A stretch of DNA of 64,000 nt from Planctomycetota bacterium (GCA_003136555.1 PLEW01000233.1:6067-70066); one strand, 5' to 3'. Positions 1,369-23,247 are shown, numbered from the stretch's first letter. The notes: generated by a model from the sequence alone, not told the origin. Numbers and translations are program-made.

Positions 1369-1382
1369 AGATCCTAATATCT
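1369..1382. promoter_or_regulatory. Candidate operator site 1 of 7 (weakest): AGATCC-TA-ATATCT, reverse complement AGATAT-TA-GGATCT
   Basis: Lies in an AT-rich island 42 nt upstream of the porin start at 1424. The reverse complement is followed by TTTAGATG, resembling the sTTTAs flank of the other sites. Confidence 0.35.
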
Positions 1383-1423
1383 CCATTTGAGCCAGCTCAC
1401 CTCCTTTCCCGGAGAACGCCGCT

Positions 1424-2662
1424 ATGATCCATCACCGCAGCATCGTCCGCTCGACCCTCCTCCTCCTCGCCGGCCTCGGCGTCGTCGTGGCGGCGGAGGA
1501 CCAACAGCCTGCGTCTGCACCCGCCACCGATCCGACCGCCCAGCTCAAGCAGCGCCTGGATGACCTGGAAAAGCAGATCAAGGCTCTCCAGGCCCAGGTC
1601 CAGTCGACGAATCAGCAGCCGTCCGACACCGCCGCCCTCGAAGCACGGGTATGGAAGCTTGAGGCGGAAGGACAGACCGACAACGGCTATGCCTTCGGTG
1701 GGGTCGGAGATGTGACCTTGGTGGCGCAGAAGAATGTCGGCAAGACCGTCAGCGCGGACTTCAATCCGATCTTCATCTACAACTACCGCGAGTCGTTCCT
1801 CTTCATCGCCGAGCTCAATGCCGATGAGAACGGCGTCTCACTCGGGCAAGCGTGGATCGCCTTCACCTCGCTGCCGCATGCGGTCGTCGAAGCCGGCCGC
1901 TTCCCGCTGCCCTTCGGCGTCTACTCCGAACGCCTGTCACCCAGCTGGGTGAACAAGTTCTCCACCAACGCGCCGCAGCCCTACAATACGGACTACGGCA
2001 TCTTCTCCGAAGACCAGACGGCCGATGGTCTGCAGGTGCGTGGGGACATCCCGCTGCCCAACAACGCCAAGGGCAATTACCATATCTTCGCGGTTGCCGC
2101 GCCAACCTATAATAGTCAGGATTTCTCCGATAACCGCCTAGTATTCGGCAATCCGGGCACCGGCGACCACGTCCGTCCGACCCTCGGTGCACGTCTCGGC
2201 TTCCTGCCGATGCCGACCGTCGAAATCGGCGTCTCGGGCATGTTCGGCGCGATCATCAATCAGCAGACCGCCGATCCGACCATCGATGATACGGCCGAAC
2301 GCTCCTACCATGCATTCGATGTCGATGCAGAGTACCACTACCAGAGCGCAGTCATCCGTGGTGAATATGTGCGCATGGACAATCAGGACCCCACCGGAGC
2401 CTGGGTGCATTCCCAGGGCGCCTATCTCCAGGGTTCGCACCGCTTGACCTCGCTGCAGGGCTGGTTGAGCGGCTTCGAGCCGACCATACGCATCGGACGC
2501 GTTCAACGCAGCGTCGTCGATAACGGCTATCAAGATGTCAATGAGCTCGATATCGGGGTGAACTACTATTTCACCAGCTACATCCGCACCTCTTTGATGG
2601 GATTCGACCACAGCGTCCATTCCCTGGACCAGGTCGTCCTCAACACCACATTCTCCTACTAG
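1424..2662 (+). CDS. Porin-like outer-membrane protein with N-terminal coiled coil (OprO/P-like architecture)
   Basis: Signal peptide MIHHRSIVRSTLLLLAGLGVVVAAED. Coiled-coil segment LKQRLDDLEKQIKALQAQVQ. Long beta-rich body ending ...LNTTFSY (aromatic C-terminus). GGAG upstream of the ATG. Confidence 0.65.
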   Translation: MIHHRSIVRSTLLLLAGLGVVVAAEDQQPASAPATDPTAQLKQRLDDLEKQIKALQAQVQSTNQQPSDTAALEARVWKLEAEGQTDNGYAFGGVGDVTLVAQKNVGKTVSADFNPIFIYNYRESFLFIAELNADENGVSLGQAWIAFTSLPHAVVEAGRFPLPFGVYSERLSPSWVNKFSTNAPQPYNTDYGIFSEDQTADGLQVRGDIPLPNNAKGNYHIFAVAAPTYNSQDFSDNRLVFGNPGTGDHVRPTLGARLGFLPMPTVEIGVSGMFGAIINQQTADPTIDDTAERSYHAFDVDAEYHYQSAVIRGEYVRMDNQDPTGAWVHSQGAYLQGSHRLTSLQGWLSGFEPTIRIGRVQRSVVDNGYQDVNELDIGVNYYFTSYIRTSLMGFDHSVHSLDQVVLNTTFSY

Positions 2663-2675
2663 GAAGGAACCGGAC

Positions 2676-2981
2676 ATGACGTTTTTCCCCATGACCACGC
2701 TGTCCCTGTCCCTGGCGCTTGTCGCCTGCGGATCGTTGCAGGCCGAGGATTCCATGCAGAGTGCTGCGATGGGCGCAAAGGTCTTCGCTGAGAATTGCAA
2801 CCGGTGCCATGAGGCCCCGGACCCGGCGTCGCGCGACGGTCGTACCTGGACCGGCATCTCCCTGCATATGCGCGTCTTCGCCGATCTCTCGCAGGAAGAC
2901 CAGCACCGCGTGCTCGCCTTCCTGCGCACCTTCGATACGGCGGCCATCCCCAAGAAGCCGGGTGTCCCCGCCGCACGCTGA
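2676..2981 (+). CDS. Monoheme c-type cytochrome, lipoprotein
   Basis: Lipobox LSLALVAC. Single heme motif CNRCH. AGGAAGGA ribosome-binding site. Starts 14 nt after the porin gene, so probably the same operon. Confidence 0.8.
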   Translation: MTFFPMTTLSLSLALVACGSLQAEDSMQSAAMGAKVFAENCNRCHEAPDPASRDGRTWTGISLHMRVFADLSQEDQHRVLAFLRTFDTAAIPKKPGVPAAR

Positions 2982-3128: not shown

Positions 3129-3142
3129 GGATAAGAACATCT
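3129..3142. promoter_or_regulatory. Candidate operator site 2 of 7: GGATAA-GA-ACATCT
   Basis: AT-rich island (ggataagaacatctgtttattttattg) 47 nt upstream of ATG 3189. Nearly identical to site 7 (GGATAAGATCATCTGTTTAG). Confidence 0.5.
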
Positions 3143-3188
3143 GTTTATTTTATTGTCATGTGACAGTCACGCGCTAGCATCCTTTTAC

Positions 3189-3992
3189 ATGTCCGATTCG
3201 GCCCCCACGACACGACGTCATTCGCGCGTACCGGCACTCGATCCGGAACGCGCCTTGTCCCGTCTCAGCGCCGTGCAGTTGCGCGAGCGCGAGCTGCGCC
3301 GTCCGGGCTTCCATTTCGCCTCAGCAGACGCGCCGGAAGACTTCATCTCTGCCTATCCAGAACTTGCGCAGATCTGCGCGGAGTGGGAATTGTGCACCGG
3401 GCAAGCGATCGGTGAAAGAGGTCCAGCCGCCACGCAGATCCTGCTCGAACTCGCCCGCAGGGCACAGCCGCCCTATCATGGGTTCGATTGCGGCGAAGTG
3501 AATATCTCCCGCTTGATCGATGAACTGGTGGACCAGCACCACCCCGCCTTGCGCTGGGAATTGGCGCGGCTGGACTTGCTCGTCGCCCGGCAGTCCGAGC
3601 TGCGCAACCGCGCCGATGTGCGCACCCTGCATTGCGGCTGGGAGGTGTTCCGCGATCGCTTCCTGGATCATCTGCATGAGGAGGAGGTCCATTGCTTCCC
3701 GCTCTGCCGCTTCCTCGACCAGGCGCGCTCGGAGCTGCTGCCGTCACGAGCGCAATGCGCTAGCCAACTGGCCATCATGGGCAACAGCCATGCCCAGTCC
3801 CAGTCGGAACTCGACGAGATGCTCGTGCTGGCGCGTCGTGCGGACATCGCGGTCATCGAACCTGATCTAGGCGTGGTCGTCCATGGCCTGGTCGCCATGC
3901 GCCAGGCACTCGTGCTGCATACCGAGCTGGAGAACGGCTCGCTGCTCAAGCGCTGCGCCCTGCTGGCGATCCAGCGGACGTCGGCCGCGTAA
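3189..3992 (+). CDS. RIC/ScdA-type di-iron (hemerythrin-like) protein, paralogue 1
   Basis: The track ORF starts at TTG 3153; ATG 3189 (MSDSAPTT...) is more likely. Hemerythrin-like motifs VDQHHPALRWEL, LDHLHEEEVHCFPL and LHTELENGSLL match RIC H-x3-E / HxxxEN..LFP blocks. N-terminal FISAYPELAQICAEWEL resembles the ScdA_N region. Confidence 0.7.
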   Translation: MSDSAPTTRRHSRVPALDPERALSRLSAVQLRERELRRPGFHFASADAPEDFISAYPELAQICAEWELCTGQAIGERGPAATQILLELARRAQPPYHGFDCGEVNISRLIDELVDQHHPALRWELARLDLLVARQSELRNRADVRTLHCGWEVFRDRFLDHLHEEEVHCFPLCRFLDQARSELLPSRAQCASQLAIMGNSHAQSQSELDEMLVLARRADIAVIEPDLGVVVHGLVAMRQALVLHTELENGSLLKRCALLAIQRTSAA

Positions 3993-4178: not shown

Positions 4179-4192
4179 GGATAAATATATCT
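4179..4192. promoter_or_regulatory. Candidate operator site 3 of 7: GGATAA-AT-ATATCT
   Basis: AT-rich island (caggataaatatatctctttacatgaatagatat) 60 nt upstream of ATG 4252. Followed by CTTTACAT, as at site 6. Confidence 0.5.
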
Positions 4193-4251: not shown

Positions 4252-5121
4252 ATGGATGCATCAGCCATCACCGTGCCCTTTCTCGGCCACTCCTGGAAGC
4301 GGGTGTACTGGGTAGATGAGCCGGAAAGCGCGCAGCACCTGCCGCCGGTTCCTATGCCGGCATCGCCGGCTCCCGCGGGCGCTCCACCGCTTTTCAGCGG
4401 CGCCAGCCGCCGTGCGGACCTGGTCGCCGCCTATCCCGATCTCGATGCGCTGTGCGATCGCTTGTCCTTCGGCTGGGACATGACGTTGGAGAGCTTGTGC
4501 AGCCAGAGCGACTGGGCGCTCCTTGAACTGGCCCGTGCTGCCAAGCCGCCTCGGCAGGCACGTCAAGCCGATTGGTCGATGGCGACCATGAGCGAGCTGG
4601 TCGGGGACATCCTTATCACCCACCATCTGCCATTGCGCAGTGAACTGCGACGCATCGACATCCTTATCCATCAGTTCTGCCGCCGCCACCCCGAACTGGC
4701 ACATTTCGATCTCCATGGGGTCTATGCGCGTCTGGCCGATGGCCTGAATGCCCATCTCGACCATGAGGAGGGGGTGGTCTTCCCCCTGGGCCTCGCCATC
4801 GAGCGCGCCAGCCGTCACCCTGGCCAGGACGTGCCCGCGAGCAGCGCGGTCACCGGCGCCATCCGCTACATGGCGCTCGGCCACCAGGACGCTGCGCAGG
4901 CGATACGACGCCTGCTGGTGGTCCTACGCCAGGTGCAGATGAACACCTTCGATACCGATCTCGGACTGATCAGCGATGCCTTGGCCGCCATGCTGGCCGA
5001 TCTCACCCAGCATGAGGACAAGGAGGATGGCATCCTGATGCCGGCCGTCATCTTCGCAGATGAATTGCTGCGCTCCCGCGCAGCGGCACCCGCCAGCACC
5101 AGTCACGGATCAGCAGGCTGA
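4252..5121 (+). CDS. RIC/ScdA-type di-iron (hemerythrin-like) protein, paralogue 2
   Basis: AGGAG ribosome-binding site. Motifs LVAAYPDLDALCDRL, ITHHLPLRSEL, LNAHLDHEEGVVFPL and LTQHEDKEDGILMP parallel paralogues 1 and 3. Confidence 0.7.
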   Translation: MDASAITVPFLGHSWKRVYWVDEPESAQHLPPVPMPASPAPAGAPPLFSGASRRADLVAAYPDLDALCDRLSFGWDMTLESLCSQSDWALLELARAAKPPRQARQADWSMATMSELVGDILITHHLPLRSELRRIDILIHQFCRRHPELAHFDLHGVYARLADGLNAHLDHEEGVVFPLGLAIERASRHPGQDVPASSAVTGAIRYMALGHQDAAQAIRRLLVVLRQVQMNTFDTDLGLISDALAAMLADLTQHEDKEDGILMPAVIFADELLRSRAAAPASTSHGSAG

Positions 5122-5260
5122 GCACGCCCCATGGTCACACCTCCCCGATCCGCAGCGACAGGCCTGCACACCGGCGAGCCGGCGAGCGTCCGGACCATCC
5201 CATCATCCAGCATAACCGAGCGGGTCGATCCCGCAGACATCAGCTGAGCAGGAGACCGCC

Positions 5261-6490
5261 ATGTACCGCAAACCCATTCCAACATCGGCCCACGATCGTC
5301 AGCAGCGCGAGCACGCACCCCATGTGCACGCCGAACCAGCCGCGGTGCCTGCGGCCGCACTGGACTATCAGCAGATCCAGGCGCTCGCAGCCCGCCCGGC
5401 GACGCCGACCATCTCCTTATATTTGCCGACGCACCGGGCCGGCAGCGACAAGAAGCAAGACCATACCCTGCTCAAGAACCTCATCCAGGAGGCGCGCCGT
5501 CAGGCGGATGGGACGATGAGCGCGCCAGGCGCAGATGCCCTGATCGCACCATTGAACCGCTTGGTCAACGAGCCCGGCTTCTGGGCGCATCCGCTCGATA
5601 GCCTTGCGGTGTTCAGCAGCGCCACCGGCATGACCCATGCCTGGCTGCCAGCGCCGGTGCCTGCGCTGGCTAGCTTCAGCGAGCACTGCCACCTCAAGCC
5701 GATCATTCCCCTGATCCAAAACGACGGCCGCTTCTATGTCCTCTCGCTGACGCAGCATGGTGTCCACCTCTATCGCGGCACCCGCCATGCCCTGACCATG
5801 ATCGAGCTGCCCAATACCCCGGCATCGATCGAGGAGGCGCTCGGCGAGCCGGTCCAGGAGCGCCACACCGAAGTACGCACCGTACAGGGCGGTGGACAGG
5901 GGTCGACTCGGTATTTCGGCACGGTGGGCGATGAGCAGGCCAAGGGCCGCATCCGGCACTATTTCCGGATCATCGACGGGACGGTTAGCCGCCTGCTGCA
6001 TGCCGAGCACGCCCCGCTGGTCATCGCCGGGGTCGAATTCCTCCTGCCGCTCTACCGCAGCGTCAACAGCTATCCGCACCTTGATCCTGCTGGGATCGGC
6101 GAGCACACCGACCCCCAGGCGCTCGGTGCCCTGCATCAGCGAGCCTGGTCGATCGTCGCCCCGCATTATACGGTGCCGGCGCTGAAGGCTGGTGAGCGGA
6201 TCGCCCAGCTCCTGGGCACCCCGCGCGCCTCGACCGACCTCGCGACCATCCTGCCAGCGCTGATCCAGGGACGGGTCGAGGACCTCTTCGTCGCCAGCGA
6301 TGCCGATCGCTGGGGCACCTATGATGCCAGAAACGACGTCGTGCGTGAGCACCATCCGCGCTGGGCGACCGATGATGATCTTCTCAATCTCGCGCTGATC
6401 CACGCCCTTGCGACGCGGGCTCTGGTCCAAGTCGTGCCCCGCGGCGACATTCCTGGTGGCCACGACATCGCTGCGGTATTCCGCTTCTGA
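5261..6490 (+). CDS. eRF1-like protein (bacterial archaeo-eukaryotic release factor, baeRF-type)
   Basis: AGGAG ribosome-binding site. TISLYLPTHR near the N-terminus, a central FYVLSLTQHGVHLY block, and a C-terminal ...GGHDIAAVFRF tail. These match my recollection of baeRF-family proteins. No search was run. Confidence 0.55.
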   Translation: MYRKPIPTSAHDRQQREHAPHVHAEPAAVPAAALDYQQIQALAARPATPTISLYLPTHRAGSDKKQDHTLLKNLIQEARRQADGTMSAPGADALIAPLNRLVNEPGFWAHPLDSLAVFSSATGMTHAWLPAPVPALASFSEHCHLKPIIPLIQNDGRFYVLSLTQHGVHLYRGTRHALTMIELPNTPASIEEALGEPVQERHTEVRTVQGGGQGSTRYFGTVGDEQAKGRIRHYFRIIDGTVSRLLHAEHAPLVIAGVEFLLPLYRSVNSYPHLDPAGIGEHTDPQALGALHQRAWSIVAPHYTVPALKAGERIAQLLGTPRASTDLATILPALIQGRVEDLFVASDADRWGTYDARNDVVREHHPRWATDDDLLNLALIHALATRALVQVVPRGDIPGGHDIAAVFRF

Positions 6491-6534
6491 CCAGGAACCA
6501 GTCCACCATCATACGCTCGTGAGAGGATGAAGCC

Positions 6535-7584
6535 ATGCACTGCGACCATCTCCATTCCATGATTCCGCTTGAACGCTATCGCGACATCATCGCCGCCATC
6601 GGCGCGAAACGCGAGTCCTGGGCCGACAGCTTCTGGATGCGTTTCGCCGCCCAGGCGGCGGTTCTCTGCCCCGATCCGCCAGAGCAGCTGGCCAAGCGCA
6701 TCCACCACATCGCCTCAGCGCTGCAGCAGCGGACAGCGTGGTATCGCACCCTCGCCTCTCCGGTGCGCTTCGTGGTCGCGGCGATGCTCATCCAGCATCA
6801 CATCCCGGTCGCCGACTTCCTCGGCGAATGCGATCGCGCCTCCGAGGTCTTCAAGGAGGTCGGATTGCACCATCATGGCTTCTACGAAACCATGGCCGTG
6901 CTCATCCTGCGCCTCTCCGCCAAGCATCCAGCCCCGAGCCTGATCCAAGCCGATCGCATCAAGTCGCTCTACGACCATATGAAGGGCTTCCACTGGTGGC
7001 TGACCGGGCCGAGCGACCTGCCTGCATGCGCCGCGCTCGCCTCGTGCCCCGGTCCGGCAGAGGTGGTGGTCGCCCATGTCGAGGATGCCTATCAGCAGCT
7101 CAAGGCCAGCGGACTGGCCAGGAACCATCATCTGCAGACCGCCGCGAATCTCCTGCCGGTCCTCGGCGTGCCGATCGACGAGGGGGTGTCCCGCTACCGG
7201 GCGCTCAAGATGGCCTTCGAAGTGCGCAACGGTGTCCTGGATGTGGAATCCTATGATGCGCTGGTGGTGCTGGCCCTCATCCACCAGACCACCGATATCA
7301 TCATCAACCGCTTGTGCTCGGTGCGCGAGGAGCTCGATCTCTTCCAGCCGGAGCAGTGCGGACCTGCCAATTTCCTGATTGCAGCCGACCTGACCGTGCT
7401 GGATCTGGTGCGTTTCGGTCCGGATCAGGAGCAGATCCGCCAGCCACAGGACGTCGAGAGCATGATGGCCACCATCCATGCCTTCCACATCGCCTCGGCG
7501 GTCCTGGTCAGCCAAGTGCAGCCGGAGATGATCCAGCCGCTCGGCGGCCTGGACGCCATGGGGTGGCCCTATCCCTATGCGTGA
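6535..7584 (+). CDS. Hypothetical all-alpha protein (possibly DUF4003-like)
   Basis: GAGAGGA ribosome-binding site, 45 nt after the baeRF stop, same strand. Long helical, His-rich sequence with no motif I recognise confidently. The antisense ORF 6715..7830 is judged a shadow. Confidence 0.55.
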   Translation: MHCDHLHSMIPLERYRDIIAAIGAKRESWADSFWMRFAAQAAVLCPDPPEQLAKRIHHIASALQQRTAWYRTLASPVRFVVAAMLIQHHIPVADFLGECDRASEVFKEVGLHHHGFYETMAVLILRLSAKHPAPSLIQADRIKSLYDHMKGFHWWLTGPSDLPACAALASCPGPAEVVVAHVEDAYQQLKASGLARNHHLQTAANLLPVLGVPIDEGVSRYRALKMAFEVRNGVLDVESYDALVVLALIHQTTDIIINRLCSVREELDLFQPEQCGPANFLIAADLTVLDLVRFGPDQEQIRQPQDVESMMATIHAFHIASAVLVSQVQPEMIQPLGGLDAMGWPYPYA

Positions 7585-15567: not shown

Positions 15568-15570
15568 GAG

Positions 15571-16647: not shown

Positions 16648-18889
16648 CGCCGTTACCGGAGAACCCGCCACCCCCGCAGCAGCCACGCTCGACACCTTCG
16701 CCTACGACAACCGCTCGGTCCGCGACTTCATCATCGCGACCGTGGTCTGGGGCCTCGTCGGCATGCTCGTCGGAGTGCTGATCGCACTGCAGCTCGCCTG
16801 GCCCGCAGCCAATTTCGACCTCCCCTGGCTGAGCTACGGCCGCATCCGGCCGCTGCATACCAACGCGGTGGTGTTCGCCTTCGCCGGCAACGCCATCTTC
16901 GCCGGATTCTACTATTCGCTGCAGCGCCTGCTCAAGGCGCGCATGTACAGCGATGTGCTGTCGCGCATCAACTTCTGGGGCTGGCAGCTGATCATCCTCG
17001 CGGCGGCGATCACCCTGCCGCTGGGCAAGACCACTAGCAAGGAGTACGCCGAGCTGGAATGGCCGATCAAGATCGCCATCGCCGTGGTGTGGGTCGCCTT
17101 CGGCATCAACATGATCGGCACCATCCTCAAGCGGCGCGAGCGCCATCTCTATGTCGCGATCTGGTTCTACATCGCCACCTTCCTCGGCATCACCATGCTG
17201 CACGTGATCAACGGCCTGGCGGTTCCGGTATCGTTCCTCAAGTCCTATCCAGTCTATGCCGGGGTGCAGGATGCGCTGGTGGAGTGGTGGTACGGCCATA
17301 ACGCCGTCGCCTTTTTCCTCACCACGCCCTTCCTCGGGATGATGTACTATTTCCTGCCCAAGGCCGCCGAGCGTCCGATCTACAGCTACCGCCTATCGAT
17401 CGTGCACTTCTGGTCGCTGATCTTCCTCTACATCTGGGCCGGTCCCCATCATCTCCTGAATACCGCCCTGCCGGAATGGGCCCAGACCCTTGGGGTGGTG
17501 TTCAGCGTGATGCTGATCGCCCCGTCGTGGGGCGGCATGATCAACGGCCTGCTGACCTTGCGCGGCGCCTGGGACAAGGTGCGCACCAGCGCGGTGCTCA
17601 AGTTCCTGGTCGGCGCGGTGACCTTCTACGGCATGGCGACCTTCGAGGGCTGCCTGCTCGCACTGCGCGATGTCAATGCCCTCAGCCACGACACCGACTG
17701 GACCATCGGCCATGTCCACAGCGGCGCCCTCGGCTGGGTCGGCCTGCTGACCTTCGGCATCATCTACTGGATGATCCCGCGCCTGTGCCGCACCACGCTG
17801 TGGTCCGAAGCGATGGCCAACCTGCACTTCTGGATCGCCACCATCGGCATCTGCATCTACGCCGTGGCAATGTGGATCGCTGGCATCACCGAGGGATCGA
17901 TGCAGCTGGCCTTCGACAGCAACTCGCACCTGGTCTACCGCGACTGGTCCGAGATCGTGCGCGCCACCATCCCCTTCTTCTGGGTGCGCCTGGGCGCCGG
18001 TCTGATCTACCTGGCCGGCATGGTGCTGTGCGCGATCAACGTGTTCCAGACCATCTGCCACGGCAAGCCGGTGCAGGATGAGACCGTCCAGGCGCCGCCC
18101 CTGATCCGCGACACCGAATACGTGGCGCAGATCGATGCCGCGCTGTCGAAGTCGGGATGGCGAGATTTCTCGACCTCGATGCACAGCCTGGTCGAGCGCT
18201 GGCCCGCGGTGATGATCCTGTTCGCCGCCGGCGCATTGGCGATCGGCGGGCTGTGCGAGATCGTGCCGAATATGATCCAGGGCGCGCTGTCGCCCAAAAT
18301 CGCCTCGGTCACGCCCTATACCCCGCTCGAGCTGACCGGACGCGACATCTACATCCGCGAGGGGTGCAGCAACTGCCATACCCAGATGATCCGCACCCTG
18401 CGCGCCGAGACCGAACGCTATGGCGGCCAGTACACCAGGCCCGGGGAGGGCATCTACGACCGCCCCTTCCTCTGGGGTTCGAAGCGCACGGGCCCCGATC
18501 TCGGTCGCGAAGGCGTGCTGCGGCCCTCCGCCGCCTGGCATTACTACCATCTGCAGCGCCCCTCGTCGATGTCGACCGTGACGGTCATGCCGAACTATCC
18601 CTGGCTGATCAGCGATGACATGGATCTCAGCGACATCGGCACCAAGCTCGCGGTGCTGGCAGGCATGCCGATGTTCACCCCCTACAAGGCGGCCGACATC
18701 GAGCAGGCCGAGAGCAATGCGCGGGCGCAGGCACTCGTGGTGGCCAACGAGCTGCGCAAGGAGCCGCGCCTGAAGGACGACAAGGACCTCGAGAAGAAGG
18801 AGATCGTCGCCGTGATCGCCTACCTCCAACGGCTCGGCACCGATCTCGGGAAACCGTCTCCCGCGACGGTGAGCACAGCAGGACACTGA
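16637..18889 (+). CDS. ccoNO: Fused cbb3-type cytochrome c oxidase subunits I and II (CcoN-CcoO)
   Basis: 750 aa. Heme-copper oxidase core with conserved His-containing helices (HFWSLIFLYIWAGPHH, TIGHVHSGALGWV). C-terminal CcoO part with a TM segment, heme site CSNCHTQMIR and FLWGSKRTGPDL. Confidence 0.95.
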   Translation: MTSDAVTGEPATPAAATLDTFAYDNRSVRDFIIATVVWGLVGMLVGVLIALQLAWPAANFDLPWLSYGRIRPLHTNAVVFAFAGNAIFAGFYYSLQRLLKARMYSDVLSRINFWGWQLIILAAAITLPLGKTTSKEYAELEWPIKIAIAVVWVAFGINMIGTILKRRERHLYVAIWFYIATFLGITMLHVINGLAVPVSFLKSYPVYAGVQDALVEWWYGHNAVAFFLTTPFLGMMYYFLPKAAERPIYSYRLSIVHFWSLIFLYIWAGPHHLLNTALPEWAQTLGVVFSVMLIAPSWGGMINGLLTLRGAWDKVRTSAVLKFLVGAVTFYGMATFEGCLLALRDVNALSHDTDWTIGHVHSGALGWVGLLTFGIIYWMIPRLCRTTLWSEAMANLHFWIATIGICIYAVAMWIAGITEGSMQLAFDSNSHLVYRDWSEIVRATIPFFWVRLGAGLIYLAGMVLCAINVFQTICHGKPVQDETVQAPPLIRDTEYVAQIDAALSKSGWRDFSTSMHSLVERWPAVMILFAAGALAIGGLCEIVPNMIQGALSPKIASVTPYTPLELTGRDIYIREGCSNCHTQMIRTLRAETERYGGQYTRPGEGIYDRPFLWGSKRTGPDLGREGVLRPSAAWHYYHLQRPSSMSTVTVMPNYPWLISDDMDLSDIGTKLAVLAGMPMFTPYKAADIEQAESNARAQALVVANELRKEPRLKDDKDLEKKEIVAVIAYLQRLGTDLGKPSPATVSTAGH

Positions 18890-18891
18890 TC

Positions 18892-19074
18892 ATGCAAAAC
18901 TACCTCAACGCCCATCCGAACAGCCTCGCCCTCTTCGCCTTGCTGCTGTTCGTCGGACTCGCAAGCCTAGTCGTGCTCTACATCGCCACCGACCGCCGCA
19001 AGGCGCATCATCGGCGCATGGAGAGCATGGCCCTCGATGACGACAACCAGCAGAAAGGAACCCCGCATGTCTAG
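18892..19074 (+). CDS. CcoQ/FixQ-like small subunit
   Basis: 60 aa with a single TM segment, followed by TDRRKAHHRRMESMALDDD. In the position between ccoNO and ccoP. Confidence 0.6.
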   Translation: MQNYLNAHPNSLALFALLLFVGLASLVVLYIATDRRKAHHRRMESMALDDDNQQKGTPHV

Positions 19075-19669
19075 TACTGGAAGCACCGACGCCGGCGGCG
19101 GCAACATCGATCGCGAGCGCGACCACTCCTTCGATGGCATTACCGAATACGACAACGACCTCCCCCGCTGGTGGCTGGCGATGCTGTGGATCAGCGTGGT
19201 CTTCGCCATCTGGTACGTCGCCTATTTCCATTTCGGCAACGGCCAGATCGGCGTGGATCGCTGGACCAAGGAAACGGCGGCCATCGCCGCTGAGCGCGCC
19301 AAGCACCAGACTGGCCCGCTGACCGAGGAGTCGTTGCGCGCCCTCAGCCACGATCCCGAGCGCATCGCCCGGGGGAAGACGCTGTTCGGCACGGTCGGGT
19401 GCTCGATCTGCCACGGTCCTGAAGGCACCGGCCTGATCGGCCCGAATCTCTGCGACCGCTATTGGATCTATGGCTCGAATATGACCGACATCGTGGAGGG
19501 CATCACCAATGGCCGTGCCAACAACGTCATGCCGCCGCAGAAGGCGGCGCTGTCCCCTGACGACATCAACAATCTGGCGATCTACGTGGTCAGCCTCAGC
19601 CGGGCCGGCTTCAAGCCCGGTAAGCCCGCCGATCTGACGCGTGAAAAAGACAACCCGATCACCTATTGA
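19067..19669 (+). CDS. ccoP: cbb3 oxidase subunit III (CcoP), monoheme variant
   Basis: Conserved FDGITEYDNDLPRWW N-terminal motif. Only one CxxCH (CSICH) is present. The start is placed at ATG 19067 (AAAGGAA RBS, overlaps the ccoQ stop) rather than the track start 19037. Confidence 0.85.
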   Translation: MSSTGSTDAGGGNIDRERDHSFDGITEYDNDLPRWWLAMLWISVVFAIWYVAYFHFGNGQIGVDRWTKETAAIAAERAKHQTGPLTEESLRALSHDPERIARGKTLFGTVGCSICHGPEGTGLIGPNLCDRYWIYGSNMTDIVEGITNGRANNVMPPQKAALSPDDINNLAIYVVSLSRAGFKPGKPADLTREKDNPITY

Positions 19670-19675
19670 TCCCCC

Positions 19676-21082
19676 ATGGACGATGTCAGCGACGACTTCC
19701 GCTCTGTCATGGCATCCGTCGACCGTCGTGGTCGACGGAAATGGGTCTATGTCCACATCGTCCCCGGTATCTGGCGCCGCCGCCGCTTGGTGGTGGCCTA
19801 CCTGATCACCGCCCTGGTGATCGCCCTGCCCCATCTGCGCATCGCCGGTCGTCCGGTCCTGTGCATCGACTTCCCCCACTCGCAGTACACCGTCCTCGGG
19901 CAGGTGTTCTGGCCACAAGATCTCAGCTACCTGCTGCTCCTCCTGCTGATGGCCATCATCGGCACCCTGCTCGCCGTCTCCCTGGTGGGTCGAGTGTTCT
20001 GCGGCTGGCTGTGCCCGCACAACGCCTTGCTGGAATTCATCTTCCGGCCGATCGAGGAACTGCTCGAAGGTCCGGCTCATCGGCGCATCCGCCAGGATCA
20101 CGCGGGGCTGCACCCCGGGCTCATCCTGCGCAAGCTGGTCAAATGGGCGCTCTTCCTGCTGGTGTGCATGACCCTGGCGAGCGCGGTTGCCGCCCTCTTC
20201 ACCGGAGCGGACGCCATGGTCGGCGGCATCCATATCGATGCCGCCGAGCATCCGGGCGGCGCCCTGTTCGCGGGCCTGCTGACTGCCGCCATGCTGTTCA
20301 ACTTCGCCTGGTTCCGCGAGCAGACCTGCACCATCGTCTGCCCCTACGGTCGGCTGCAGGCAGCGATGCTCGATCGTCATTCCCTTGTGCCGGCCTACGA
20401 TGCGCGTCGCGGCGAGCCGCGCGGCAAGGCCGCGAAATCGGCGGCCGCCGAGGCGCCGGCGGCGTTGGGCGACTGCGTCGACTGCAAGCTCTGCGTCTCG
20501 GTATGCCCGACCGCCATCGACATCCGCAATGGCAGCCAGCTGGAGTGCATCAACTGCTTGGCCTGCATCGACGCTTGCGATGGCGTCATGGCCAAGCTGG
20601 GTCGGCCGGCGGGCCTGATCGCCTACCGCAGCGAGAACCAGCTCAGCGGTCAGCCGCGCCAGGTGCTGCGTCCGCGCACCCTTATCTATGGCGCGGTGCT
20701 CGCGGTGCTGCTGGCGGTCTCTGCCATCCGCATCGGCTCGCGCACCGATCTGCAAGTCATGCGCCTGCGTGTCGGTGCCATGCCCTCACTGGTGCGCGAT
20801 GCCGCGGGCAACCAGCTCGTGCGCCAGGATCTCACCTTGTCGGTCATCAATCGCACCGGCGACGAACAGCGCGTCACCTTCGGCCTGCCCGACGATCTGG
20901 GTGCGTCCCTGCACCTGGTGGAGCCGGTGGTGGTATTGGGCCCGAACCAGCGCCGCGAGATCACTCCGACGGTCGATATCCCGGAACAACGCCTGCATGG
21001 CAGCGATCGCGCCACCATCCTCTCCATCACCAGCAGCTCCGGCACCCATGTCGACCTGCCTATCACCCTGCGTGCCCCATGA
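19676..21082 (+). CDS. ccoG: CcoG/FixG 4Fe-4S ferredoxin-type membrane protein
   Basis: TM segments followed by two ferredoxin motifs: CVDCKLCVSVCP and CINCLACIDACD. Confidence 0.9.
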   Translation: MDDVSDDFRSVMASVDRRGRRKWVYVHIVPGIWRRRRLVVAYLITALVIALPHLRIAGRPVLCIDFPHSQYTVLGQVFWPQDLSYLLLLLLMAIIGTLLAVSLVGRVFCGWLCPHNALLEFIFRPIEELLEGPAHRRIRQDHAGLHPGLILRKLVKWALFLLVCMTLASAVAALFTGADAMVGGIHIDAAEHPGGALFAGLLTAAMLFNFAWFREQTCTIVCPYGRLQAAMLDRHSLVPAYDARRGEPRGKAAKSAAAEAPAALGDCVDCKLCVSVCPTAIDIRNGSQLECINCLACIDACDGVMAKLGRPAGLIAYRSENQLSGQPRQVLRPRTLIYGAVLAVLLAVSAIRIGSRTDLQVMRLRVGAMPSLVRDAAGNQLVRQDLTLSVINRTGDEQRVTFGLPDDLGASLHLVEPVVVLGPNQRREITPTVDIPEQRLHGSDRATILSITSSSGTHVDLPITLRAP

Positions 21083-21582
21083 ACCAGCCCCAGACCAGCA
21101 CCTTCAACCCCTGGCCCTGGCTGCCGGTCATCGTGCTCGGCATCACCGTCATCCCGAGCCTGATCTTCGTGATGACCGCGCATCGCCTGCGGCTGGGCCT
21201 GGTGGAGGAGCTGCCCTACCAGTCGTCCGTGCATTACGATGTCGACAAGCAGTCGCGCAGCGATTTCCGCGCCGCTGGCTATCACTTCGCCGCCCAAGGC
21301 GACGGTCCGCTGCGGCTGCGCTTCCAGCTCGCCGCGCCGGTCGGTGCCGGCCCGGCGAAGGACACCCAGATCGCACTCTACCGCCCAGACGACCTGCGCT
21401 GCGACCGTGTCATCGCCTGGCCCGATCCCACGCAGCCGTTGGTCGTCTCGGTGCAGCGCCCCGGTCTCTGGCGCGTGCGCCTGTCTCTGAACCTGGCTGG
21501 ACCGGTGAGCTCCACCGGTACGGCCAACGACCGAGTGCTGACGGACGAGACCGCCGTCGATGCCCCCGAGGAGGAACCATGA
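21079..21582 (+). CDS. FixH/CcoH-like protein
   Basis: Extracted from the long ORF 19666..21582. ATG 21079 overlaps the ccoG stop (ATGA). N-terminal NPWPWLPVIVLGITVIPSLIFV TM segment, as in FixH. Confidence 0.7.
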   Translation: MNQPQTSTFNPWPWLPVIVLGITVIPSLIFVMTAHRLRLGLVEELPYQSSVHYDVDKQSRSDFRAAGYHFAAQGDGPLRLRFQLAAPVGAGPAKDTQIALYRPDDLRCDRVIAWPDPTQPLVVSVQRPGLWRVRLSLNLAGPVSSTGTANDRVLTDETAVDAPEEEP

Positions 21583-22019
21583 TCACCTTGACCGGCGAAT
21601 ATGCCTTACGGGCGGTCGTCTGCCTCGCCGCCCATCCCGGCGAGCCGATGACCGCCGAGGCCATCAGCCAACATACCGCTGTGTCGGTGGGCTACCTGGC
21701 GAAGATCCTGCAGGGGCTCAACCGCTCGGGCCTGGTGGCATCGCAGCGGGGACCGCATGGCGGCTTCACCCTGCGCCACCGGGCGGAAGACATCACCGTC
21801 TATGATGTGGTGGAGGCGGCCGATCAGCTGCCTCGCCTGCATGAGGGTCCAGATGGGGCGGTGGCTCCCAGCCCGAATAAGGTCCTCGATCGCCTGCACC
21901 GCCTGCTGTCGCATGTCCGCGGTCAGCTCGAGGAGGTCTACCGTACCACCACCATCGCGGCGCTGATGGTCGAGACCGGTAGCCCGGACCAGAGCGGTCC
22001 TGCCGCCGTCAGGCCATGA
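21579..22019 (+). CDS. Rrf2-family regulator lacking cluster-ligand cysteines
   Basis: Extracted from ORF 20688..22019. ATG 21579 overlaps the fixH stop (ATGA). GEYALRAVVCL...VSVGYLAKILQGLNRSGLVASQRGPHGGFTL. No Cys/His cluster in the 90-105 region. Confidence 0.85.
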   Translation: MITLTGEYALRAVVCLAAHPGEPMTAEAISQHTAVSVGYLAKILQGLNRSGLVASQRGPHGGFTLRHRAEDITVYDVVEAADQLPRLHEGPDGAVAPSPNKVLDRLHRLLSHVRGQLEEVYRTTTIAALMVETGSPDQSGPAAVRP

Positions 22020-23149
22020 GCCTCCGGCCCGCGTTCGACTTCAATCGTGCCCCCTTCATCGTCATCTGGGAGGTCACGCGGGCCTGCGATCTCGCCTGCC
22101 AGCATTGCCGCGCCGATGCGCAGCCGGACCCCTCCGCGCAGCAGCTCACCACCACCGAGGGCATGGCCCTCCTCGATCACGTGCGCGAGCACTTCGGCGT
22201 GGTGCTGATGGTCTTCACCGGGGGTGACCCGCTCAAGCGCCCCGATCTCCACCAGCTCATCGCCCATGGTACGCGCCTGGGGCTGCGCATGGCCATCACC
22301 CCCTCGGCCACACCGCTGCTCACCGCTGCGGCGATCGGGGCGCTGCAGGACAGCGGAATAAAGCGCATCGCCCTCAGCCTGGATGGCGCCGATGCGGCCA
22401 CCCATGATGCCTTCCGCGGTGTGCCAGGGACCTTTGCCCGCACCATCGATGCGCTGAACACCGCTCGCCGTCTGGGCCTGGAGATCCAGGTCAATACCAC
22501 CGTCTCGCGCCATAACATCGGCCAGCTAGAGCAGATCGCCCGCATGGTCGAATACCTGGATGCGCGGCTGTGGTCGGTCTTCGCCCTGGTCGCGACCGGT
22601 CGCGCTGCTGCCGATCTCCTGCCGACCCCGCTCGAGCATGAGCAGGTCTACCGTCTCCTGGCCGCGCTCGCTTTGGAGCCCGCCACCAGCTTCGATATCA
22701 AGACCACCGCCGGCCAGCCCTATTACCGCGTCCTGGCGCAGCGGCGCGCGGCAGCGCTTGCGGCCGGAGCGGCGGGAGAATCCCTGCGCACCCCCGGCAA
22801 CCGCGCGCCACGCACGGTCAACGATGGCAACGGCCTGGTCTTCATCAGCCATACCGGCGAGATCAGCCCCTCGGGCTTCCTGCCCCTGGTGGCGGGCACT
22901 GTGCGCACGGCGAGCCTGGCCGACGTCTACCGCCAGCAGGCGCTCTTCGTCCGTCTGCGCCAGCCCGAGACCTTCAGCGGCAAATGCGGATGGTGCTCCT
23001 TCCAGCAGCTGTGCGGAGGCAGCCGCAGCCGCGCCTTCGCCGCCACCGGCGACGCCTTCGCCAGCGATCCGACCTGCATCCACCAGCCGAAGCGCCAACT
23101 GCAGGGGGCTTCCGAACCCGGATCAGCAACTTCTGGGAGGAGCACGTAG
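22016..23149 (+). CDS. Radical SAM/SPASM-domain protein (recalls the TIGR04053-type family)
   Basis: WEVTRACDLACQHCRA (CxxxCxxC), TGGDPLKRPDL, SLDGADAATHDAFRG, and a C-terminal Cys-rich SPASM-like segment GKCGWCSFQQLCGG...DPTC. ATGA overlap with the rrf2 stop. Confidence 0.88.
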   Translation: MSLRPAFDFNRAPFIVIWEVTRACDLACQHCRADAQPDPSAQQLTTTEGMALLDHVREHFGVVLMVFTGGDPLKRPDLHQLIAHGTRLGLRMAITPSATPLLTAAAIGALQDSGIKRIALSLDGADAATHDAFRGVPGTFARTIDALNTARRLGLEIQVNTTVSRHNIGQLEQIARMVEYLDARLWSVFALVATGRAAADLLPTPLEHEQVYRLLAALALEPATSFDIKTTAGQPYYRVLAQRRAAALAAGAAGESLRTPGNRAPRTVNDGNGLVFISHTGEISPSGFLPLVAGTVRTASLADVYRQQALFVRLRQPETFSGKCGWCSFQQLCGGSRSRAFAATGDAFASDPTCIHQPKRQLQGASEPGSATSGRST

Positions 23150-23233
23150 ACGAGGCCGCATGCCAAAATGACATCTGACGACATCGCTCGAGACATGCGA
23201 GCTGAGCGGCGCCGGTTTCGGGCAGCAATATAT

Positions 23234-23247
23234 GGATAAGATCATCT
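23234..23247. promoter_or_regulatory. Candidate operator site 7 of 7: GGATAA-GA-TCATCT
   Basis: AT-rich island (atggataagatcatctgtttagaataataatg) 45 nt upstream of ATG 23292. Followed by GTTTAGAAT (a TAGAAT -10-like hexamer). Confidence 0.5.

Follow-up and report, generated by a model that had tools for sequence, protein, structure and literature searches.

A candidate Rrf2 regulon of a Planctomycetota bacterium that links the regulator gene with a cbb3 oxidase system and RIC-like di-iron proteins

Introduction

NsrR, known from E. coli, Neisseria, Bacillus and Streptomyces, is an NO-sensing [4Fe-4S] repressor of the Rrf2 family. IscR is a [2Fe-2S] regulator of the same family, with the ligands C92-X5-C98-X5-C104-X2-H107, and activates suf from a site adjoining the −35 element. 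The cbb3 operons are classical FNR/FixK targets, and the FNR/FixK boxes at their promoters are centred near −41.5. In RsrR of Streptomyces venezuelae (PDB 6HSD), an Rrf2 protein that senses redox state, Cys, Glu and His residues ligate a [2Fe-2S] cluster; its operator is an 11-3-11 repeat and its targets lie in NAD(P)H and glutamine metabolism (PMC5015018).

The DNA analysed here is a 64,000-nt stretch from a Planctomycetota bacterium (GCA_003136555.1 PLEW01000233.1:6067-70066; hereafter the window). It carries seven short palindromes that an unusual Rrf2 regulator encoded beside them very probably binds. Along with its own gene, this candidate regulator would control three iron-repair-like proteins and a low-oxygen respiratory oxidase. 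An initial annotation of the window had considered such a regulon undescribed, and no description of this wiring was found in the searchable literature.

Genes of the candidate regulon

The gene assignments made initially for the units served by the palindromes agree with Pfam and NCBIfam. These identify three hemerythrin/RIC-like proteins, baeRF family 3, DUF4003, a ferredoxin, two Rrf2 proteins and a GNAT protein, and also ccoS-ccoNO-ccoP-ccoG, DsbD_2-CcoI and a cytochrome c. The units are as follows.

316-2981, divergent: OMP β-barrel (316-1275, − strand), 412-aa secreted protein (1424-2662, + strand) and cytochrome c (2676-2981, + strand)
3189-3992, + strand: RIC-like di-iron (hemerythrin-domain) protein 1, candidate target
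4252-7584, + strand: RIC-like 2 (4252-5121), baeRF family 3 (5261-6490) and DUF4003 (6535-7584), candidate target
7655-7945, − strand: small ferredoxin, divergent from rrf2-A, candidate target
8132-8569, + strand: rrf2-A, candidate regulator with an Rrf2 wHTH, identified by Pfam, NCBIfam, family conservation and linkage of the motif to its orthologues
8814-9532, + strand: uORF (8814-8873, 19 codons, Shine-Dalgarno AAGGAGG) overlapping the start of a GNAT acetyltransferase gene (8870-9532), candidate target
13078-16332, − strand: dsbD2 (15571-16332) and the P-type ATPase gene ccoI (13078-15567), candidate target
16447-23149, + strand: operon of ccoS, fused ccoNO, ccoQ-like, ccoP, ccoG, ccoH, rrf2-B and a radical SAM gene (TIGR04053, AhbD-like), candidate target
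21579-22019, + strand: rrf2-B, paralogue of rrf2-A (46% identical)
23292-24083, + strand: RIC-like di-iron protein 3, candidate target

Several of these arrangements recur in related genomes, including the divergent fdx-rrf2 pair (8 related loci), dsbD2-ccoI (L004, L005, L091 and L094) and the operon from ccoS to the radical SAM gene (L091/L092). Within this operon rrf2-B overlaps both of its neighbours, ccoH (21079-21582) at its 5' end and the radical SAM gene at its 3' end, and its position at the end of the cco operon is kept in L091-L093. No AT-rich island or terminator-like site lies between the RIC-like 2, baeRF and DUF4003 genes, which are presumed to form a single transcription unit. 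The inclusion of an eRF1-like protein in the regulon, as initially proposed, survives in this restricted form: the eRF1-like (baeRF) gene presumably belongs only through co-transcription with RIC-like 2. DUF4003 has a motif site of its own in one distant relative (L057). The classical NO-detoxification genes hmp, norB and hcp are absent from the window.

The palindromes and their enrichment

All seven 14-mers are present at the coordinates given initially. They follow the consensus RGATAW-N2-WYRTCY, with the core RGAYAW-N2-WTRTCY, that is, GGAT and ATCC blocks 10 bp apart.

1361-1382, unstranded: double candidate operator, GCATCTAAAGATCC (1361) overlapping AGATCCTAATATCT (1369) at an 8 bp offset, between the divergent OMP gene (316-1275, −) and the genes for the 412-aa secreted protein and cytochrome c (1424-2981, +)
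3129-3142, unstranded: candidate operator GGATAAGAACATCT, upstream of RIC-like 1
4179-4192, unstranded: candidate operator GGATAAATATATCT, upstream of RIC-like 2, baeRF and DUF4003
8068-8081, unstranded: candidate operator GGATATATATGTCT, between the divergent ferredoxin gene and rrf2-A
8774-8787, unstranded: candidate operator GGATATTGATATCC, a perfect palindrome, upstream of the uORF and GNAT gene
16386-16399, unstranded: candidate operator AGATATAAATATCC, between the divergent dsbD2-ccoI and ccoS-ccoNO-ccoQ-ccoP-ccoG-ccoH-rrf2B-rSAM units
23234-23247, unstranded: candidate operator GGATAAGATCATCT, upstream of RIC-like 3

The window contains only 11 AT-rich islands (at least 70% A+T across 30 bp), and RGATAW-N2-WYRTCY occurs in seven of them, as the initial annotation had it. 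In a PWM scan of the window the seven sites have the highest scores (14.1-21.9 bits) and every one is intergenic, the next-best matches, at 11384 and 52146, being intragenic (13.3-13.6 bits). The sites end 41-59 nt before a start codon, and 26 nt separate the 8774 site from the uORF at 8814. The form GGATAWNNWYATCY has 5 distinct matches, against 0.00 expected from 100 window shuffles, with 8068 (GGATATATATGTCT) and 1369 (AGATCCTAATATCT) representing weaker variants. When the islands were shuffled one by one with dinucleotide content preserved (5000 shuffles), RGAT-N6-ATCY was found in a mean of 0.11 islands and a maximum of 2, compared with 6 observed, so that AT-richness does not explain the motif. 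Its occurrence and enrichment in the window are thus confirmed.

Duplication of promoter cassettes could also generate such a pattern. The RIC-like 1 and RIC-like 3 promoters are identical at 19/20 bases (GGATAAGAnCATCTGTTTA) and the genes are paralogues; the 23234 site, a near-duplicate of that of RIC-like 1, is therefore probably not independent of it. No independent orthologue of the 23234 site was found among the related loci, L084 being the same organism. Nevertheless, the notion that the motif is a by-product of duplicated cassettes or of AT-rich promoter composition, with no regulatory role, has next to no plausibility given the shuffling result, the presence of the motif at unrelated genes (cco, fdx/rrf2 and GNAT), and the fact that it is retained at orthologous positions, between diverged flanks, in genomes with 46-74% G+C.

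The site at 1369 is the weakest, as initially claimed, but is really two overlapping sites, 1361 and 1369, the pair scoring 14.1 and 10.7 bits. This three-half-site layout recurs upstream of rrf2 in L056, L060, L063 and L067. The OMP, secreted protein and cytochrome c are possible regulon targets through this site only.

Conservation in related genomes

A PWM built from the window's sites only was used to scan the 220 bp preceding the rrf2-A orthologue at 76 loci. Sites of at least 10 bits were found in 27 of the 76 (0.82 expected) and of at least 16 bits in six (0.05 expected), and the loci with a site include Acidobacteriota, Melainabacteria and Armatimonadota. An upstream site of at least 10 bits is lacking in 40/76 loci, which may reflect operator drift, for example to single GGATATCC elements or GGACRTC variants, or no autoregulation. 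In 1.1 Mb of related DNA, all five exact occurrences of GGATATNNATATCC lie upstream of rrf2 (L014, L017, L020 and L076) or of a RIC-like gene (L002).

Sites are also kept upstream of orthologues of the target genes. They are conserved at RIC-like genes (L001, L002, L081, L082/83, L086 and L087), with orthologues of the 4179 site at L001 14660, L002 4953 and L087 3556 (GGATATAAATATCY); at the matching position between fdx and rrf2 (L001-L005, L008/9 and L094); at the cco promoter (L004/L005, L091, L013, L066 and L094); and at the GNAT unit (L094). Linkage of the rrf2-A orthologue to cco genes recurs (L004, L005, L007, L013, L019, L057, L066 and L094). The neighbourhoods in relatives also show an NO/O2 theme: canonical RIC is the sole recurrent functional neighbour, in L069 a qNOR gene diverges from an rrf2-RIC-rrf2A unit with a motif site in between, and in L060 a truncated globin gene lies 3' of rrf2. 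The conservation upstream of orthologues supports the earlier suggestion of a dedicated Rrf2 regulon in which the regulator's own gene is tied to cbb3 respiration and RIC-like di-iron proteins.

The binder could in principle be another regulator, for example one of the CRP/FNR family or MerR type encoded elsewhere, with the Rrf2 genes as targets only. The GGATA-N4-TATCC architecture does match TTGAT-N4-ATCAA, the 5-4-5, 14-bp geometry of the FNR box, and FNR and FixK are the familiar regulators of cbb3 operons. However, the motif accompanies the rrf2-A gene in four phyla and is often the sole site in 20 kb, none of the window ORFs scanned has a CRP/FNR or MerR domain, and the half-sites are not known to match any FNR, DNR or NnrR consensus, which makes such a binder very improbable.

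The Rrf2-A and Rrf2-B proteins

As judged by sequence, Rrf2-A belongs to a distinct, widespread Rrf2 subfamily and is not an NsrR, IscR or RsrR orthologue. Its conserved residues are E7, C90, H97, C102, H105, D109 and C138, comprising a sensor loop C-X6-H-X4-C-X2-H together with a conserved Cys near the C-terminus and Glu7; CX6HX3-5CX2H is present in 132 of the top 150 representative clusters. This signature suggests a putative Fe-S cluster with mixed Cys/His ligation, although the ligand pattern is unlike that of any Rrf2 protein with a known cofactor. Assignment as an NsrR, IscR or RirA orthologue was rejected: Rrf2-A falls short of the equivalog models, and the ligand pattern and operator geometry differ. 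The original label "NsrR-type" consequently holds as a functional analogy only. One subfamily member (P0017) carries the JGI automatic annotation "nitric oxide-sensitive transcriptional repressor".

Rrf2-B lacks the Cys/His ligands, as do its homologues P0001-P0005, but has the same recognition-helix and wing residues as Rrf2-A and retains the family wHTH residues Y39, K42, Q45, Q56, R57, G58 and GGF. It very probably binds the seven palindromes too.

The regulon could be real and yet respond to Fe-S cluster or iron status, as with IscR and RirA, or to redox poise, as with RsrR, rather than to NO or O2. The ligand spacing copies that of IscR, with the middle Cys replaced by His one residue earlier, the closest solved structure by sequence is that of RsrR (6HSD, E = 2.7e-9), and many of the targets are iron, heme or Fe-S proteins (ferredoxin, radical SAM, CcoG and the di-iron proteins). 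Against this, neither the window nor the related loci examined have isc, suf or iron-uptake genes beside any site, in relatives it is RIC, qNOR, globin and cbb3 that occur as neighbours, and His12 of RsrR is Arg in Rrf2-A. An iron or redox signal is accordingly considered unlikely.

Promoter geometry

The promoter elements described here are consensus guesses, and a σ70 scan gave promoter-like sites no more numerous than in shuffles. Five sites had been described as followed by TTTA(C/G/T), read as a −10-like element. An exact TTTA follows four only (3129, 4179, 16386 and 23234), the 8774 site having aaTTAG, and the box is more likely a −35-like hexamer than a −10. Such hexamers at the operators are TTTACA, TTGCAT, TTTGCA and TTGACT. 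TAnnnT follows 15-17 nt 3' of the hexamer in L094, in L048/L029 and, in three lineages, at the cco promoter, so the operator would abut the −35 at those promoters, with its centre at about −42. Downstream of the 16386 site come TTTACA (16401-16406) and, across a 16-nt spacer, TAATTT (16423-16428); the 3129 site has TTGTCA (3153-3158) and, with a spacer of equal length, TAGCAT (3175-3180). In L081, which has an 86% orthologue of RIC-like 1, the site and both hexamers are kept while the spacers have diverged. The orthologous Pat-GNAT unit of L094, immediately 3' of rrf2, has GGATAAAAATATCT, c, TTTGCA, a 16-nt spacer and TAGGCT.

Only at rrf2 promoters does the operator lie over the predicted −10. 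The 8068 site encloses a predicted TATATA (8071-8076), 16 nt 3' of TTGTAA (8049-8054), and in several lineages TTGCAA, TTGCCC or TTGTAA lies 16 nt 5' of a TATnnA enclosed by the operator. Many autoregulatory sites end just 20-45 nt before the start codon, a geometry that fits repression. At the target promoters, in contrast, the operator would abut the −35.

This difference raises the possibility of dual action as in IscR, in which Rrf2-A would repress its own promoter from over the −10 and activate cco, RIC-like and Pat/GNAT genes from a class-II-like position upstream of the −35, the role of FNR/FixK at proteobacterial ccoN promoters. The operator ends 1-2 nt 5' of the −35-like hexamer with TAnnnT 15-17 nt on (window cco, L004, L091 and L094 Pat-GNAT), and its centre at about −42 at cco and Pat-GNAT is also the classical class-II activator position. 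Yet good −35-like hexamers (TTTACA, TTGACT) are unusual at activator-dependent promoters, and L048/L029 have the same layout 5' of rrf2 itself, with near-consensus TTGACT, a 17-nt spacer and ATAATT. In addition, since known Rrf2 operators span 23-29 bp, a hexamer just 1-2 nt from the site would probably lie under the bound dimer, TAATAAT lies just 8 nt 3' of the RIC-like 3 and GNAT sites, and the promoter assignments are predicted. Activation of the targets is a less likely alternative, and repression by Rrf2-A is plausible.

Proposed regulon

The palindromes are interpreted as operators of an Rrf2-A dimer in an NsrR-like, signal-released repressor regulon, with a probability of roughly 0.7. 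The in silico analysis shows that the motif exists and is enriched, that it is linked to the regulator gene and that orthologous promoters conserve it, whereas binding of Rrf2-A to the operators, the cofactor, the signal (NO, O2 or redox) and the direction of regulation are inferred. The regulon would comprise rrf2-A and the divergent ferredoxin gene, the entire cbb3-oxidase system in both directions (dsbD2-ccoI and ccoS-NO-Q-P-G-H-rrf2B-radical SAM), the three RIC-like di-iron proteins (one with baeRF and DUF4003) and the GNAT acetyltransferase, with the outer-membrane protein/cytochrome c pair as a possible member. Cluster-bearing Rrf2-A would bind the operators and repress, covering the predicted −10 at its own promoter and abutting or occluding the −35 at target promoters. 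Damage to or alteration of the cluster by NO, O2 or oxidants would abolish binding, leading to joint derepression of the oxidase, the di-iron proteins and the regulator. An NsrR-like logic would in this way be executed by a different Rrf2 lineage.

Comparison with known systems

The candidate regulon shares with NsrR the Rrf2 wHTH, AT-rich palindromic operators at promoters, autoregulation, RIC/YtfE-type di-iron proteins as prime targets, linkage to NO reductase and globin genes in relatives, and an acidic residue, E7, at the position of NsrR Asp8. Unlike NsrR, Rrf2-A scores 47 bits against an equivalog cut-off of 182 and lacks the middle cluster Cys, having a conserved His and a C-terminal Cys instead; the operator is 6-2-6 (14 bp) rather than 11-1-11, and the main target is the cbb3 oxidase system in a window without hmp, hcp or nor. 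RsrR likewise has two sensor-region Cys with non-Cys ligands, a Glu8 equivalent to E7 and an autoregulated gene, but its His12 corresponds to Arg11 in Rrf2-A and the Cys positions and spacing differ, as do the operator and the targets. In IscR the first Cys, last Cys and His are equally spaced (C-X11-C-X2-H), and dual repressor/activator use of sites relative to −35/−10 is conceivable here too. However, the second ligand is His97 in Rrf2-A and Cys98 in IscR, Rrf2-A reaches 39 bits against the IscR cut-off of 207.55, the regulon is without isc/suf genes and the operator is unrelated. With FNR/FixK/Anr control of proteobacterial ccoNOQP/ccoGHIS, the locus has in common a 14-bp palindrome adjoining the cbb3 −35, centred at about −42, and co-regulation of respiration with hemerythrin- or NO-related genes, whereas the regulator is an Rrf2 wHTH rather than a CRP/FNR protein, the half-sites are not the same and regulation probably has the opposite sign.

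Gene content of the cluster

Genes were identified with Pfam and NCBIfam, both of which agree with the calls of the initial annotation.

Genes of the motif-bearing cluster (window coordinates; −, minus strand)
316-1275, −: OMP β-barrel gene
1424-2662: 412-aa secreted protein
2676-2981: cytochrome c
3189-3992: hemerythrin-domain protein, RIC-like 1
4252-5121: hemerythrin-domain protein, paralogous, RIC-like 2
5261-6490: baeRF family 3
6535-7584: DUF4003
7655-7945, −: small ferredoxin (fdx)
8132-8569: Rrf2-A
8870-9532: GNAT
9564-12392, −: hybrid histidine kinase (three PAS, GAF, HisKA-HATPase, receiver)
13078-16332, −: CcoI + DsbD_2
to 21582: ccoS, fused ccoNO, ccoQ-like ORF, ccoP, ccoG, then FixH-like ccoH (21079-21582)
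21579-22019: Rrf2-B
22016-23149: TIGR04053 radical SAM/SPASM protein, related to heme b synthase AhbD
23292-24083: hemerythrin-domain protein, paralogous, RIC-like 3

The window contains a cbb3 oxidase gene set (CcoN, O and P, with the maturation proteins CcoG, H, I and S), recognised from a COX1+FixO fusion, FixP_N, Fer4_18/FixG_C, FixS, a P-type ATPase and the FixH-like ORF at 21079-21582. CcoN and CcoO are fused in one 750-aa protein (16637-18889), as they are in the related loci L091 (748 aa) and L066 (754 aa). The hybrid kinase gene lies mid-cluster without an operator of its own, and its product could act as a second sensor, for O2, NO or redox state. The locus has its closest relatives in Planctomycetota MAGs, and the remainder of the window encodes PSCyt/PSD “planctomycete” domains. 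The stretch 35811-42050 encodes an ECF sigma factor, a FecR-like anti-sigma factor and then, as a pair, a PSCyt/PSD multi-domain protein and DUF1552 (HXXSHH); another PSCyt/PSD-DUF1552 pair occurs 10 kb further along (49753-53661); such pairs are typical of planctomycetes, of unknown function and unrelated to the motif.

Seven His/Glu residues are invariant among the three hemerythrin-domain paralogues (H118, H148, H161, E165, H201, H244 and E248), with a spacing like that of the YtfE ligands. Their scores against the RIC/YtfE model TIGR03652 are 46-66 bits against a cut-off of 204.7, and none matches the ScdA_N domain, so they are named RIC-like only. Downstream of RIC-like 2 lies a pair of genes for a baeRF-1 family 3 (eRF1-like) protein and DUF4003 (5261-7584). 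Burroughs and Aravind predicted that baeRF-1 proteins act in ribosome rescue or hibernation under stress, and their paper makes no mention of a DUF4003-baeRF link (PMC6514570). This role would suit a stress regulon, of which the pair would be a member by presumed co-transcription only. Upstream of GNAT is a uORF of 19 codons (8814-8873; MGWRQPNHRSVPLPFDLMT) with a strong Shine-Dalgarno sequence, AAGGAGG, and a stop codon overlapping the GNAT start codon (ATGA). In the related locus L094 a full Pat-type protein acetyltransferase (897 aa) occupies this position, so the uORF could be a remnant or encode a leader peptide.

The motif in the window

All seven 14-bp elements reported in the initial annotation were found, at 1369, 3129, 4179, 8068, 8774, 16386 and 23234. 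In the 64 kb of the window, which is ~65% G+C, the strict pattern GGATAWNNWYATCY occurs at five distinct places, against 0.00 expected from window shuffles, and the 8068 and 1369 sites are looser variants. The element at 1369, annotated as one site, is present but belongs to a double site, in which GCATCTAAAGATCC at 1361 and AGATCCTAATATCT at 1369 overlap at a distance of 8 bp. In a position weight matrix (PWM) scan the seven sites gave the best scores and were all intergenic, the next matches (13.3-13.6 bits) lying inside genes. Only 11 AT-rich islands (≥70% A+T over 30 bp) exist in the window and seven contain the motif. As a control for local AT-richness, the islands were shuffled one by one, with dinucleotide content preserved; RGAT-N6-ATCY, observed in six islands, reached a mean of 0.11 and a maximum of two over 5000 shuffles, so the motif also withstands this check on composition. 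Rfam and tRNA scans of the whole window gave no match, indicating that the islands are not known RNA elements. Exact enumeration of 4-N-4 palindromes proved underpowered (GATA-N4-TATC, three observed against 0.14 expected), and the PWM and per-island shuffles were used instead. Four islands are without the motif, a pair at 12693-12812 and single islands at 34369-34426 and 49596-49653; the pair lies within a 685-bp stretch (12393-13077) with no convincing ORF, flanked by the PAS/GAF hybrid kinase gene and ccoI.

The predicted operator core is 14 bp long (6-2-6), its GGAT and ATCC blocks being set 10 bp from each other; additional half-sites, in an 8-bp phase, occur in some promoters. Arrays of such phased half-sites, for example GGATATCTGGATATCCACGTCT and GGATATnnAGATCCnnATATCC, are frequent, and the operator is elsewhere extended by flanks of the type GATCAA...TTGATC or ATATCA...TGATAT (arrays or flanks at L001 9940-9961, L004 9902-9923, L060 8388-8409, L067 1719-1740, L014 9953-9980 and L076 9957-9982). 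Certain clades have a lone GGATATCC only, or GGACRTC variants (L065, L070, L072). The arrays and variants suggest the binding of more than one dimer and operator drift.

Association of the motif with rrf2-A and candidate target genes

Comparison was made with 80 loci encoding Rrf2-A relatives of 83-49% identity, L037 and L047 at about 60%, mostly from Planctomycetota, with some from Acidobacteriota and Melainabacteria and one Armatimonadota MAG. A PWM built from the window's seven sites only was applied to the ≤220 bp upstream of each rrf2-A orthologue, with 4703 other 220-bp windows from the same loci as background. A site of ≥10 bits was found at 27 of 76 loci (0.82 expected), and one of ≥16 bits at six of 76 (0.05 expected). 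Exact GGATATNNATATCC occurs five times in 1.1 Mb of related DNA, on each occasion just upstream of rrf2 (L014, L017, L020, L076) or of a RIC-like gene (L002). Once related sites had been added to the PWM, it gave 29 matches of ≥15 bits, mostly upstream of rrf2 and the remainder mostly upstream of RIC-like or cco genes. That the motif travels with the regulator gene across phyla is the main argument for Rrf2-A as the binder, and it speaks against a CRP/FNR or MerR-type protein. Reading the sites as CRP/FNR boxes is very unlikely: no domain of this family was found among the 40 window ORFs scanned, the half-sites are unlike TTGAT-N4-ATCAA, and the motif co-occurs with rrf2. The 127 genes next to rrf2-A orthologues reflect mainly housekeeping synteny (Obg, MurG), and only RIC recurs as a functional neighbour.

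Sites are also conserved upstream of the orthologues of rrf2, cco, RIC-like, fdx/rrf2 and GNAT genes. At the cco promoter the site is AGATATAAATATCC in the window, GGACATGAATATCC in L004/L005, AGATAAAAATATCC in L091, GTATCTCTATATCC in L013, AGACCCATTTATCC in L066 and AGATATTCATATCC in L094; the flanks diverge between these loci while the site stays. The RIC-like 1 orthologue of L081 (86%) is preceded by GGATAAGAATATCT, and RIC-like genes have sites in L082/83, L086 (48% G+C), L087, L001 and L002. Divergent fdx/rrf2 pairs with a site are found in L001-L005, L008/9 and L094. The last of these (74% G+C) has the neighbourhood of the window, ccoS/dsbD2-ccoI and fdx/rrf2 followed by Pat-GNAT, with a site in all three intergenic regions. 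GNAT homologues in other genomic contexts (L095-L097) have no site, suggesting that membership of GNAT is lineage-specific. In L057, a planctomycete of 43% G+C, DUF4003 (13307-14347) has its own operator and is divergent from a Usp gene, and in eight loci the rrf2-A orthologue is linked to cco genes. The unit of OMP, 412-aa protein and cytochrome c is a candidate member through its site at 1369, the weakest of the seven. The double-site layout of 1361/1369 recurs upstream of rrf2 in L056, L060, L063 and L067. Two short JGI contigs, L084 (RIC-like 3) and L089 (RIC-like 2), from metagenomes Ga0302267 and Ga0302187, match the window's upstream DNA, so that the organism is seemingly present in those samples, and the close relative L081 comes from another JGI metagenome, Ga0302319.

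The candidate regulators Rrf2-A and Rrf2-B

Rrf2-A belongs to the Rrf2 superfamily (PF02082, 91.8 bits; TIGR00738, 99.6 bits against a cut-off of 73.3), as does Rrf2-B (99.9 and 100.5 bits). Both pass the superfamily model only, their scores being well short of the cut-offs for the NsrR, IscR, RirA, CymR and SUF-regulator equivalogs. Among 84 members of the Rrf2-A family, conserved residues are E7 (98%), C90, H97, C102 and H105 (99% each), D109 (95%) and C138 (86%). A search of 1.84 billion representatives gave 111 clusters at E ≤ 1e-30, and C-X6-H-X3-5-C-X2-H is present in 132 of the best 150 representatives, against two with the three-Cys pattern (CX4-6CX4-6C). By sequence, the Rrf2-A group is a coherent and widespread subfamily with a predicted non-canonical sensor site, and we infer that it binds an Fe-S cluster. 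The subfamily would extend the range of Rrf2 sensors by a new arrangement of ligands, carried by at least ~110-130 clusters (50% identity) in several phyla.

Rrf2-B is 46% identical to Rrf2-A and keeps only H105 of the sensor Cys/His residues, together with the conserved recognition-helix and wing residues (GYLAKI[M/L]QGL, SQRG, GGF). Its few relatives (P0001-P0005) are likewise ligand-less, and in L091-L093 they are encoded between ccoH and the radical SAM gene, as in the window. At the 3' end of the cbb3 operon, rrf2-B and the TIGR04053 radical SAM/SPASM gene overlap in reading frame (window 21579-23149, L091 8392-9928, L092 4101-5637), an arrangement conserved in relatives at 58% identity. 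The closest named relative of the TIGR04053 protein is heme b synthase AhbD (E = 1e-89), and the oxidase could conceivably have a heme-maturation step of its own that does not need O2.

Promoter geometry and sign of regulation

The TTTA(C/G/T) after the site had been read as a −10 element; comparison across lineages instead places a −35-like hexamer there, and the box is probably a −35 element. This geometry is a consensus reading of hexamers conserved between lineages, with uncertain placements; a σ70 consensus scan gave no promoter excess over shuffles and conflicting placements. In the cco promoter, TTTACA (window), TTGCAT (L004) or TTTTCA (L091) begins 1-2 nt past the site, and TAATTT, TAGCTT or TAGCGT comes 15-16 nt past those hexamers. 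The Pat-GNAT promoter of L094 reads site, c, TTTGCA, 16 nt, TAGGCT, and L048/L029 read site, 2 nt, TTGACT, 17 nt, ATAATT. Matches of ≥4/6 to TTGACA start at offset 2 in 11 of 39 oriented sites. From this placement the operator would abut the −35 at these promoters, with its centre near −42, a position that would also suit class-II-like activation by Rrf2. Activation at the targets is a serious rival, but repression is favoured, since known Rrf2 operators span 23-29 bp, so that a hexamer only 1-2 nt from the 14-bp core would be covered by the bound dimer, and since the −35 hexamers are good.

The layout at rrf2 promoters would fit autorepression: TTGCAA, TTGCCC or TTGTAA is followed after 16 nt by TATnnA within the operator (window 8049-8054 + 8071-8076; also L001, L004, L087 and L014), and many orthologue sites end just 20-45 nt before the start codon, with the predicted −10 within the operator. 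RIC-like 1 has a conserved TTGTCA, 16 nt, TAGCAT, which starts 10 nt past the site and stops 8 nt short of the ATG. Both genomes (window 3153-3191; L081 311-349) have this element and no Shine-Dalgarno sequence, which makes a leaderless mRNA possible. At RIC-like 3 and GNAT, TAATAAT is found 8 nt past the site.

Signal and proposed regulon

The gene contexts in relatives point to NO or O2 as the signal. A quinol NO reductase gene and an rrf2-RIC-rrf2A unit flank a site in the Melainabacteria locus L069, rrf2 is followed by a truncated globin gene in L060, and the sole recurrent functional neighbour among the 127 flanking genes is canonical RIC (ScdA_N + hemerythrin). The main target in Planctomycetota is the cbb3 oxidase, and one subfamily member has been auto-annotated by JGI as an NO-sensitive repressor. 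A response to Fe-S or iron status, or to redox poise, is less probable; none of the sites has an isc or suf gene nearby. By NsrR-type logic, a cluster-bearing Rrf2 repressor would be released by NO, O2 or oxidants, and its release would switch on an O2/NO-consuming oxidase with the heme and maturation genes that belong to it, as well as a ferredoxin, di-iron repair-type proteins and the repressor's own gene.

Linkage of the motif to rrf2 and conservation at targets support the core interpretation, and it is highly probable that the sites serve as operators for Rrf2-A/B within a single regulon. The best explanation as a whole has a probability of about 0.7; once repression and an NO/O2-type signal are both made part of the claim, the odds are even or slightly better. 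Proteobacterial control of cbb3 respiration is exerted by FNR/FixK. More speculatively, an uncharacterised Rrf2 lineage with a Cys/His-ligated sensor (C-X6-H-X4-C-X2-H and a C-terminal Cys) might have taken over this job in Planctomycetota, as master control of cbb3 respiration and di-iron repair proteins. Its ligand-less partner Rrf2-B, encoded inside the target cco operon, would read the same operator, so that derepression would produce a signal-blind repressor that resets the regulon, through built-in negative feedback or A/B heterodimers. Were the regulon borne out, an Rrf2 instead of a CRP/FNR protein would be seen to control high-affinity cbb3 respiration, and a defined stress/respiratory response would gain several little-understood members, namely RIC-like proteins lacking ScdA_N, baeRF-1 family 3, DUF4003 and a radical SAM enzyme of AhbD-like type. 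To our knowledge, almost nothing is known of transcriptional control in Planctomycetota, to which this sequence-defined triplet of regulator, operator and regulon, with two small proteins and seven sites, offers a testable entry point.

Comparison with known Rrf2 systems

The earlier designation “Rrf2/NsrR-type” holds at the level of the superfamily but not for the NsrR model, ligands or operator form. Against the NsrR equivalog NF008240 (cut-off 182 bits), Rrf2-A scores 47.3 and Rrf2-B 42.2 bits. The ligands of Streptomyces coelicolor NsrR are C93, C99 and C105 with Asp8; in alignment C90 corresponds to C93, C102 to C105 and E7 to D8, whereas C99 is opposite G96, beside the invariant H97. Instead of the three-Cys set, the Rrf2-A family conserves H97, H105 and C138. 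The NsrR operator is an 11-1-11 bp inverted repeat, unlike the 6-2-6 core (14 bp) found here. NsrR regulons comprise genes for NO detoxification and repair and are derepressed by NO; here RIC-like genes occur in the window, and canonical RIC, qNOR and a truncated globin are linked in relatives. For IscR (TIGR02010, cut-off 207.55 bits) the score is 39.4 bits. IscR ligands are C92, C98, C104 and H107; the second position is His here, not Cys, and H105 occupies the position of His107. Among solved structures, those closest in sequence are RsrR (6HSD, E = 2.7e-9) and NsrR of S. coelicolor (5N07, E = 8.8e-6). Of the RsrR ligands Glu8, His12, Cys90 and Cys110, the first is conserved as E7, whereas His12 is replaced by Arg11, which is Arg in 100% of the family, and both Cys are offset; the operator and targets of RsrR also differ from those of the present system (PMC5015018).

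A literature search, with most subscription journals outside its scope, found no description of this subfamily, of its operator or of Rrf2 control of a cbb3 oxidase, in keeping with the initial annotation, which had considered the system undescribed for this kind of genome. It would work like an NsrR regulon, but HMM score, ligand set and operator form all place it outside NsrR, IscR and RsrR. An Rrf2 sensor-repressor, a palindromic operator and RIC-type targets are already known; the ligand pattern, the operator, the cbb3-centred regulon and the ligand-less paralogue within the target operon are new.
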